A stretch of DNA of 59,025 nucleotides from an uncultured Gammaproteobacteria bacterium. GTDB lineage: Bacteria > Patescibacteriota > Microgenomatia > Daviesbacterales > UBA10151. The stretch covers positions 3,606-62,630 of the forward strand of contig CAYUPO010000002.1 in NCBI GenBank assembly GCA_964446685.1, read 5' to 3'. The notes under the pieces were generated by a model. That model had not been told where the DNA came from. It did not search any database and saw only the letters and a program-made list of their open reading frames with translations. This document shows, one piece after another, positions 19,312-19,853 of the stretch. Within the stretch, counting starts at the first letter, position 1, and every line of letters starts with the position of its first letter. Position numbers and translations under genes: made by a program.

Positions 19312-19392
19312 TGTCATTCTAGAGGAGCGTTAGCGACGATAGAATCTAACCCTAACCTAGTTAAGATGCTATCGCTTCACTCCAGCATGACA
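19312..19392. repeat. TGTC-tagged REP doublet, subfamily A
   Basis: TGTCATTCTAGAGGAGCGTTAGCGACGATAGAATCT ... AGATGCTATCGCTTCACTCCAGCATGACA. Confidence 0.85.
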
Positions 19393-19431
19393 CATTAATA
19401 TAACCACTTTTTATTTTATTCAGAATAACCC

Positions 19432-19468
19432 TGTCATTCTGGAGGGAGCAACGCGACCGATAGAATCT
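19432..19468. repeat. REP left arm, subfamily A, overlapping the GIY-YIG stop codon
   Basis: TGTCATTCTGGAGGGAGCAACGCGACCGATAGAATCT. Confidence 0.85.
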
Positions 19469-19754
19469 AACCAATGCTATCATACAAATCCATGAATTGT
19501 GAGTTGTCTTTATTAATCAAATCAAGCTTCTTTCTCCGAACCAAGTTCTTAATAGCTTTCTCTCTTAAAATAGCCGATTCAATATCATAAAAGATCTCAT
19601 AATAAACCAGTTTATTCACATTATATTTATTGGTAAACCCATCTGCTAATTTATTCCGGTGTTCAAATATTCTTCTAACTAAATCATTCGTAACACCAGT
19701 ATATAAAACCGTATTTGTAAAATTAGTCAGAATATAAACATAAAATTGCTGCAT
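19467..19754 (-). CDS. Stand-alone GIY-YIG nuclease (YhbQ/UPF0213-like)
   Basis: YVYIL, LYTGVT, RRIFEH, REKAIK. Confidence 0.9.
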   Translation of the reverse strand: MQQFYVYILTNFTNTVLYTGVTNDLVRRIFEHRNKLADGFTNKYNVNKLVYYEIFYDIESAILREKAIKNLVRRKKLDLINKDNSQFMDLYDSIG

Positions 19755-19772
19755 ATTTTTCTAAACAAACTT

Positions 19773-19853
19773 CGTCATTCTGGAAGGAGCAACGCGACTG
19801 ATAGAATCTTACCCAAACAAGTTTAGATGCTATCGCTTCGCTCCAGCATGACA
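19773..19853. repeat. CGTC-tagged REP doublet, subfamily A
   Basis: CGTCATTCTGGAAGGAGCAACGCGACTGATAGAATCT ... AGATGCTATCGCTTCGCTCCAGCATGACA. Confidence 0.85.

Follow-up and report, generated by a model that had tools for sequence, protein, structure and literature searches.

A probable Ssn-kind cassette: a minimal GIY-YIG nuclease gene among clade-specific tagged DNA hairpins in a bacterium of the candidate phyla radiation

Between positions 19312 and 19853 of the DNA analysed here, a 59,025-nucleotide stretch of contig CAYUPO010000002.1 (assembly GCA_964446685.1; henceforth the window), a gene for a 95-residue, single-domain GIY-YIG nuclease lies among five copies of a tagged hairpin repeat, which we call A-type units. 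The locus is likely to be a cassette of the Ssn kind, that is, a minimal GIY-YIG endonuclease gene together with the DNA hairpins that its lineage recognises. Units of this type flank every examined gene of the nuclease's own clade and none of the genes of other clades, and their hairpin fold is supported by covariation. The window has a G+C content of 37% and is part of the 1.45-Mb genome, in 64 contigs (G000), of an ultra-small bacterium; public homologues of the protein are labelled Candidatus Daviesbacteria, in the candidate phyla radiation (CPR)/Patescibacteria group.

The layout of the locus is given in Table 1. Three long units (L1 to L3) and two short ones (R1 and R2) surround the gene where the original prediction, made by reading the window alone, had placed its left and right arms, and 100 dinucleotide shuffles of the window produced no match to either arm type. 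The positions stand but the notion that these are the arms of one palindrome does not: each is a complete, self-folding tagged unit, and a long and a short unit converge on one another rather than forming two halves. The stop codon of the nuclease does lie inside an arm, as was claimed. This TAG is the complement of 19467-19469 and overlaps the AATCTA end of the unit at 19432, whose 3' end, along with a conserved tail, AATCTAACC, provides it; the tail is also kept in a gene-free copy on contig C15. The last codons were said in addition to overlap the beginning of a right arm. The match exists, ATGCTATC being identical over eight nucleotides to the start of a short arm, but its supposed significance does not hold up: seven of the eight positions are conserved in an orthologue of 92% identity and the match is absent from other members of the clade. 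Because it is so poorly conserved in relatives, it is probably a coincidence of the codons for D-S-I, and its interpretation as a vestigial right arm was dropped.

Subfamily A was also said to occur nowhere else, which is correct for the window but not for the genome. The genome-wide count that had been proposed, made with the pattern GTCATNCTNGARN{4,34}GATAGNATC, gave ten units, five at the locus and one each on contigs C9, C15, C16, C21 and C22, and the reversed control pattern had no matches in this genome. Half of these ten units are found no more than 541 bp from the genome's sole A-clade gene.

Hairpin type and nuclease clade

The genome encodes 13 GIY-YIG paralogues, of which the eight closer ones each have a different tagged-hairpin variant in their flanks; the idea that paralogous nucleases are paired with distinct repeat variants, first put forward for the two genes of the window, extends to all eight. 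The homologues surveyed came from 60 relatives and from metagenome contigs. A-type units flank a homologue of 92% identity at the same site, homologues of 69-71% identity at a different site in three Daviesbacteria metagenome-assembled genomes, and homologues of 58-65% identity from other families of the class. The original prediction had named nearest homologues lacking flanking repeats as grounds for abandoning it; the nearest homologues carry the repeats. Sister clades carry other types, among them GTCATTGCGAG...GCAATC, the NTS-like GTCATTCC...GGAATC and GTCATTCTGG...CCAGAATC, and in records from cyanobacteria and Bacillota, C-type units accompany genes of the C clade. Over the loci examined, A-type units flank 13 of 13 A-clade genes, compared with none of 51 genes of other clades.

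The same picture emerges from a maximum-likelihood tree of 40 proteins, in which the seven A-flanked genes form one clade (support 97/87). The repeat-type label, the non-A types having been assigned by hand from the flank sequences, changes nine times over this tree, whereas 1000 shuffles of the labels gave 26 changes on average and never fewer than 21; when only A and the rest are distinguished there is a single change, the shuffles averaging 6.6. Repeat type does, as proposed, track nuclease clade. What this shows is linkage, not enzymatic specificity, because a cassette inherited or moved as a block would leave the same pattern. E-value or identity to the 95-residue query was rejected as a criterion of clade membership. 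Neither distinguishes A-clade from C-clade proteins, so the assignment to clades relied on tree and motif.

One arrangement shows that the types are not wholly confined to their own clades. Two paralogues of the same genome (L004, on contig C12, and L008, at C2:78465-81728), one of the C clade and the other of the E clade, are each followed by the same C-type unit of 48 nt, which has a long apical insert (GTCATTGCGAGGAGTGGATTCGACAAGCTCACCACGACGAAGCAATCT), so that units of one type can adjoin a gene of another type.

The A-type hairpin

The A-type unit can be written as GTCATnCTGGAR...GATAGnATCT, and has a long form of 35 nt and a short form of 27 nt. Its tag is TGTC or CGTC, its stem ATTCT/AGAAT or ATGCT/AGCAT, and its tail CTAACCCA. 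In the fold, a 5-bp closing stem beginning with A-T is followed by a mismatch box, CTGGAG/CGATAG, and then by a variable apical stem-loop, the loop being either a triloop or a variable apical module of 5-31 nt. The box contains a conserved G.T and a tandem G.A, the latter presumably paired. The stem is interrupted at the conserved non-Watson-Crick positions 10-28, 11-27, 14-24 and 15-23, and from the invariant or near-invariant G.A/A.G combinations found there we infer tandem sheared G.A pairs. The short unit contains GCGAAGC, which is the very stable DNA mini-hairpin.

Covariation was assessed over ten standard pairs in 28 different units of 35 nt, taken from numerous genera of the class. Pairing is maintained in 99.3% of cells. 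Compensatory changes are found in half of the ten pairs, among them 6-32 (T-A/C-G/G-C) and 12-26 (G-C/A-T). None of 500 shuffles reached the observed covariation, and controls in which the pairing was slid were only 25-48% paired. The pattern used to retrieve the units fixed several alignment columns, none of them among those that covary. A compensatory change can be seen within the locus itself, where L2 (GGAG...CCGATAG) and L3 (GGAA...CTGATAG) are one pair apart (G12>A/C26>T). Nearest-neighbour folding of the 82-nt doublets formed by a long and a short unit gives -12.2 kcal/mol for doublet 1 (z=-3.2) and -13.7 kcal/mol for doublet 2 (z=-3.0). No Rfam family matches the whole window at the gathering threshold, nor positions 19200-19950 at E-values up to 10.

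Pairing of a long with a short unit is a general property of the type. The A pattern is present in 32 of 401 genomes of the class, in 1 to 159 copies, and the reversed control in none. Among the copies listed there are 34 convergent pairs with tags outward against a single divergent one, and 28 of the 34 combine a long and a short unit. Four pairs are 284-363 nt apart and in this resemble cassettes; for three of them an A-clade gene was shown to lie in between. Doublets, in other words, look like cassettes without the gene. The highest count, 159 units, is found in a genome of 0.7 Mb (G200), amounting to approximately one unit per 4.4 kb, and this genome has two intact A-clade genes (L055 and L065); it would be a good place to study expansion of the A type.

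The nuclease and the Ssn family

A single Pfam domain, GIY-YIG (PF01541; E=1.4e-16), covers residues 4-76 of the 95-residue protein. The catalytic set Y7, Y18, R28, H32, E65 and N84 is complete, and all ten positions that are invariant or nearly so among 91 family members (Y7, Y18, G20, R28, H32, E65, K69, R73, K76 and N84) are retained. An AlphaFold2 model of the protein is confident and compact, with a predicted local distance difference test score (pLDDT) of 93; in a library of solved structures without any Ssn structure, its best matches are the UPF0213 protein BH0048, Slx1 and the N-terminal domain of UvrC. Sequence similarity to the UPF0213 structure 1zg2 is weak (E=6e-5), which counts against placement in that neighbouring family, and a search of NCBIfam with the protein gave sub-threshold matches only. 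A homing endonuclease of the GIY-YIG kind (I-TevI or Seg type) was considered and rejected: the 95 residues hold no extra domain, and the group I intron endonuclease model, TIGR01453, gives 16.3 bits, below its cut-off of 56.

Chenal et al. (Nat Commun 2025, PMC11893778) have characterised SsnA of Neisseria meningitidis, a 94-residue protein consisting of a single GIY-YIG domain. Its target is the NTS hairpin (CGTCATTCCCGCGMAVGCGGGAATCYRG), which it binds exclusively in single-stranded form, cutting one strand only, immediately upstream of the hairpin. Homologues (CDD cd10448, GIY-YIG_unchar_3) are found in many phyla, flanked by Ssn-related motifs (SRM) and with differing cleavage preferences, and the same authors had already drawn attention to the resemblance of the NTS-ssnA-NTS layout to an insertion sequence (IS) and to the parallel with RAYT/REP systems, that is, REP-associated tyrosine transposases and their repetitive extragenic palindromic sequences (PMC11893778). 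Criteria of family membership include a BLASTP E-value below 1e-10 with at least 75% query cover to SsnA (CAX49033.1) and cd10448 as the top CDD assignment (PMC11893778).

As a stand-in for SsnA itself, species genomes were scanned for two exact Neisseria-type NTS cores, inverted and 288-318 nt apart. The scan found at least 120 loci, in Proteobacteria, Rickettsia, Chloroflexota, Nitrospirota, Planctomycetota and CPR. An intact homologue of the 95-residue protein is enclosed in 37 of the 80 loci listed, Betaproteobacteria included; these 37 proteins are 40-56% identical to it, with E-values from 3e-22 to 3e-34 and coverage of at least 76%. The 80 loci do not include a Neisseria record. With the NTS-enclosed proteins as proxy, we conclude that the 95-residue protein probably belongs to the Ssn family. 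Two loci from the same scan (L138 and L162), both in Candidatus Rickettsia vulgarisii (CP133317.1), have exact NTS pairs about 300 nt apart that enclose only fragments of the nuclease open reading frame (ORF), of 38 and 46 residues, so these cassettes are degraded.

Hairpin types are told apart best by alignment columns 70, 71, 72 and 75, which lie among the invariant K69, R73 and K76. Residues 70-76 read N-L-V/L-R-R-K-K in proteins of type A, K-W-N-R-x-W-K in type B, G-G-S-R-x-K-K in type C and D-M-N-R-x-D-K in type D. In the predicted structure, helices 58-69 and 73-83 are joined by a turn, and the four positions fall in this turn and where the second helix begins. Specificity for the A type most likely resides in residues 70-72 and 75 (N-L-V/L ... 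K), which by this comparison of aligned sequences would read the hairpin.

The system itself is not new, the pairing of gene and hairpins and the variety of specificities having been published in 2025 (PMC11893778). Beyond this, the present locus contributes a hairpin type overlooked by the published search motif, with covariation in favour of its fold; the conserved coupling of a long with a short unit, tags facing outward; a patch of four residues in the protein whose identity follows hairpin type; and a comparison with empty sites. The repeats themselves belong among the CGTC-tagged REPs described by Di Nocera, De Gregorio and Rocco (2013, PMC3733652), who noted that these had no dedicated enzyme.

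Mechanism and alternatives

By analogy with the characterised Ssn enzymes, the protein would bind the A-type hairpin in single-stranded DNA, such as arises in replication, repair or DNA uptake. It may read the unpaired 5' tag (YGTC) together with the stem, and hydrolyse the strand a few bases 5' of the tag. Long and short units form convergent pairs with their tags outward, the orientation of the units that bracket A-clade genes elsewhere. At the present locus the three long units would direct cuts of the plus strand near 19310, 19430 and 19771, and the two short units cuts of the minus strand just past 19392 and 19853. GIY-YIG chemistry is hydrolytic, so that the enzyme alone cannot transpose DNA. 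The nicks could lead to spread of cassette or doublet via host repair or, as in Neisseria, to control of recombination with incoming DNA; they might also affect DNA uptake.

Several observations weigh against this explanation. The published SRM pattern, HGTCWYN(0-2)YYVSBRHN(0-5)WNVSBRGN(0-2)RNCYNB, which was matched for 71% of homologues (PMC11893778), fits none of the five A-type arms. Four canonical units in the window do match it, all outside the A-type locus, and in the B-type cassette of the window (see Table 1) the unit at 56439-56464 matches but those at 56473-56498 and 56818-56843 do not. The pattern is a search heuristic, and the A arms still share the tag, the A-T start of the stem, the orientation and the character of a 20-50-nt hairpin. 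Nearest-neighbour folding finds no stability in a single long arm (-2 kcal/mol, z=+0.4), so the fold of the long unit rests on covariation and on the proposed non-canonical G.A pairs. An A-clade gene was not detected in 14 of the 19 genomes that carry A-type units, and in two more of the 19 it has a stop codon; repeats therefore persist, and perhaps function, without the enzyme. The assembled contigs of the sequencing runs show no excision joints at the locus, the arrangement being unchanged in them. Finally, the unit adjoining the start codon is oriented in the same way as the downstream unit here, in an orthologous locus from another sample (L045) and in L016, although in most relatives the two are an inverted pair; this direct arrangement is not predicted by a simple tags-outward model.

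A dependence of A-type units on an A-clade gene at the level of whole genomes was also considered, and is unsupported, the gene being found in only 5 of the 19 unit-bearing genomes. Two A-flanked A-clade genes are interrupted by an in-frame stop codon, TGA in L057 and TAA in L060. They are decaying copies in genomes (G373 and G180) that keep 21 and 66 units respectively.

Evidence in favour of the cassette comes from the site of insertion. In two congeneric species (G001 and G002), tgt and orf114, the downstream boundary here, are separated by about 125 nt of unrelated intergenic DNA, and this interval contains neither nuclease gene nor A-type units. The orthologous locus L045, on a contig from another sample, has a nuclease of 92% identity and the same gene order, but two doublets upstream of the gene compared with one here, and none downstream where doublet 1 is found here. 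Elsewhere, A-clade genes have a DUF87-type ATPase gene on one side and xerC/tRNA genes on the other. The empty site in the congeners and the turnover of doublets between strains suggest that cassettes and gene-less doublets move.

This leads to the possibility, which we would take seriously without expecting it to prevail, that the locus is an autonomous mobile element: an IS-like unit-gene-unit cassette of about 0.4 kb, nicked by its nuclease immediately beyond the hairpins at its ends, with the long/short doublets as gene-less derivatives mobilised in trans in the manner of REPINs or miniature inverted-repeat transposable elements (MITEs). Such an element would extend the Ssn-kind cassette rather than exclude it. 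The empty congener sites, the varied genomic positions of the A clade and the gain and loss of doublets between close strains all fit it, as do the tags-outward orientation common to doublets and cassettes, with the four cassette-like pairs, the identities of 63-70% across phyla, and the 159 copies in G200, with its 0.7 Mb and two intact A-clade genes. The spacers of doublets retain the stop and last codon of the gene, as GGTTAG or GGTAAG, but with GGTTAG present on C15 too, in a copy that has no gene, the tail may be no more than a part of the unit. Against autonomous mobility, GIY-YIG enzymes form no covalent intermediate and cannot rejoin strands alone, most genomes with A-type units lack the gene, and the contigs of the runs show no excision joints, as described above. 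No target-site duplication or exact insertion junction is definable, the flanks of the congener sites and of the doublet insertions and deletions in L045 being too diverged.

Were Ssn-type cassettes truly mobile, they could be the missing engine of CGTC-tagged REPs. The nuclease would nick outside the hairpins, host repair would copy the cassette, doublets would spread likewise, and the host genome would hold eight orthogonal enzyme-hairpin pairs with specificity set by the patch at 70-72 and 75. We offer this only tentatively and think it on balance doubtful. If it were true, the patch-read hairpin types would constitute a small natural code for the recognition of single-stranded DNA.

An improbable alternative is that doublets came first and that the gene homed into their spacers by break-stimulated gene conversion, which would leave it bracketed by one unit on each side because it was inserted in a doublet spacer. 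Doublets are indeed far more numerous and widespread than genes, as the 14 gene-less genomes of the 19 illustrate, and the DNA left over between unit and ORF, 4-26 nt upstream and -3 to +19 nt downstream, is similar to the spacers of doublets (mostly 7-13 nt). The gene here, however, lies between a complete doublet and a lone long unit and not inside a doublet, and the empty tgt-orf114 sites of the congeners have no A-type doublet. No filled and empty doublets with the same flanks were found, and known GIY-YIG homing enzymes carry separate DNA-binding domains of which the 95-residue protein has none.

That the hairpins are general REP-like terminators or RNA elements of intergenic DNA, with the nuclease gene merely among them, is most improbable: several other tagged hairpin types do lie away from nuclease genes in the window, and doublet 2 stands directly past the tgt stop codon, where a terminator would be expected, but association is type-specific across genomes and sites (13 of 13 against 0 of 51), none of 1000 shuffles reaches the observed value in the tree label test, half of the genome's A-type units cluster at its only A-clade gene and no Rfam family matches.

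Comparison with known systems

When compared with the published Ssn/NTS-SRM systems (PMC11893778), the locus has in common a single-domain GIY-YIG protein of about 94 residues, a gene bracketed by tagged hairpins that are also scattered in the genome, the YGTC tag, a stem starting with A-T and lineage-specific pairs; the B cassette of the window even carries canonical NTS-like units. The A-type unit differs in being longer and modular, with CTGGAG/CGATAG boxes and a variable apical part, in failing to match the SRM pattern, and in occurring as long/short heterodimers. A further difference is the presence of eight Ssn-like paralogues, each with its own hairpin type, in one 1.45-Mb genome.

The CGTC-tagged REPs (PMC3733652) similarly have a terminal CGTC or TGTC tag, a stem starting with A-T and a short unpaired tail ending in CCA. 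Like the A-type units, they frequently form dimers, including heterodimers, and have copies inside genes. Their families CGTC-1 to CGTC-4 have perfect 8-9-bp stems and loops of 4-5 nt, in contrast to the mismatch boxes and variable apical modules of the A type, and the hosts described are mostly Alphaproteobacteria, unlike the CPR bacterium here.

The resemblance to RAYT-REP systems that the original prediction pointed out, and to REPINs, lies in genomic layout. In both cases an enzyme gene has a repeat type of its own in its flanks, inverted doublets without a gene occur at scattered places in the genome, paralogues pair with different repeat types and orphan repeats outlive the enzyme. It does not extend to the enzyme, which is a hydrolytic GIY-YIG nuclease and not an HUH/Y1 tyrosine transposase, so the likeness is one of analogy only; the tag is YGTC rather than GTAG and no strand transfer would be expected. 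IS200/IS605 elements, the single-strand 'peel and paste' transposons, also have sub-terminal hairpin ends recognised as single-stranded DNA, and the two units adjoining the gene here are on the same strand, like the two ends of those elements. The locus differs from these elements in having no TnpA (HUH) gene; it comprises about 0.4 kb with a nuclease only, and its mobility is putative.

Among the nearest structures, UPF0213/YhbQ and Slx1 (1zg2, 4xlg and 7cq2) share the GIY-YIG core fold, and Slx1 is structure-specific rather than sequence-specific. The weak similarity to 1zg2 sets the protein apart from the former, and Slx1 differs in needing Slx4 and a RING domain. We know of no hairpin repeats associated with UPF0213/YhbQ or Slx1.

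The genome provides a natural experiment for the Ssn idea, with eight related nucleases and their own hairpin types in one small genome, and with clades that track types across genomes. It makes testable both the determinant of specificity, for which the four-residue patch is a candidate, and the movement of cassettes and gene-less doublets. It also enlarges the catalogue of enzyme-hairpin pairs that might be usable as single-stranded-DNA tools by a hairpin type that the published pattern overlooked.

Neighbouring genes and further repeats

Table 1. Features of the A-type locus, its neighbours and the second cassette of the window
Feature	Position	Strand	Remarks
orf114 (114 aa)	18943..19287	-	Downstream boundary of insertion site; probable start at 19287
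Doublet 1	19312..19392		Long and short unit, convergent, tags outward, 16 nt between; gene-less
A-type long unit L1	19312..19347	+	TGTCATTCTAGAGGAGCGTTAGCGACGATAGAATCT; left member of doublet 1; contig position G000:C2:22918-22951
A-type short unit R1	19364..19392	-	TGTCATGCTGGAGTGAAGCGATAGCATCT on minus strand; GCGAAGC-like mini-hairpin core
A-type long unit L2	19432..19468	+	3' end and conserved tail provide nuclease stop codon
Nuclease gene	19467..19754	-	95-aa single-domain GIY-YIG protein; Ssn-like, A clade
ATGCTATC	19474..19481		8-nt match to short-arm start, in last codons D-S-I
Doublet 2	19773..19853		Long and short unit, convergent; conserved in orthologous locus L045
A-type long unit L3	19773..19809	+	Tag end 19 nt upstream of nuclease ATG; orientation as L2
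A-type short unit R2	19825..19853	-	Starts 2 nt past tgt stop codon
tgt (queuine tRNA-ribosyltransferase)	19856..21307	-	Pfam PF01702, E=7e-120; upstream boundary of insertion site
Other cassette of window	56439..56843	-	94-aa paralogue at 56524-56808, 54% identical, with B-type units
B-type unit	56439-56464	-	Canonical NTS-like; other cassette
B-type unit	56473-56498	+	Canonical NTS-like; other cassette
B-type unit	56818-56843	-	Canonical NTS-like; other cassette

The longest ORF call for orf114 (18943-19317) begins at an ATG at 19317, within doublet 1 (AGAATGACAATGG). Its orthologues begin 30 nt further in, at MLLDLS; for this reason the true start is probably the ATG at 19287, and the first ten codons of the longer call are probably untranslated. 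In the two congeners, the sites described above as empty (L051 in G002 and L052 in G001) contain a different imperfect palindrome of about 120 nt with GGAAGTTAGA-like words, which may be another repeat family.

Tagged hairpins of other types lie away from nuclease genes in the window, for example at 24177, 25430, 26375-26493, 41107 and 53697. At 26375-26493 three tagged units of three types, GTCATTGCGAG..., the palindromic GTCATTCTAGACAAGCCAGAATGAC and GTCATGCTGAACTTGTTTCAGCATCT, are found within 120 nt with no nuclease gene nearby. Another tagged hairpin of a different type, TGTCATTCTGGCTTGTCCAGAATCT, is located inside tgt at 20885-20909, in frame and within an insertion of about 100 residues in TGT. 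It translates as DSGQARMT, and the same peptide forms the C-terminal tail of the GIY-YIG paralogues L005 and L041. Unrelated to the tagged hairpins, positions 35318-35502 contain two direct repeats of 80 nt that are 99% identical and start 105 nt apart.

A distant GIY-YIG paralogue of 83 residues (L014, contig C12:734-3967 of the host genome, gene 1501-1752) starts 17 nt past a tRNA-Lys(ttt) gene. It is followed by a second copy of the 5' and 3' parts of that tRNA, split by about 90 nt and not called by ARAGORN, an arrangement resembling insertion of a nuclease gene into a duplicated tRNA gene.

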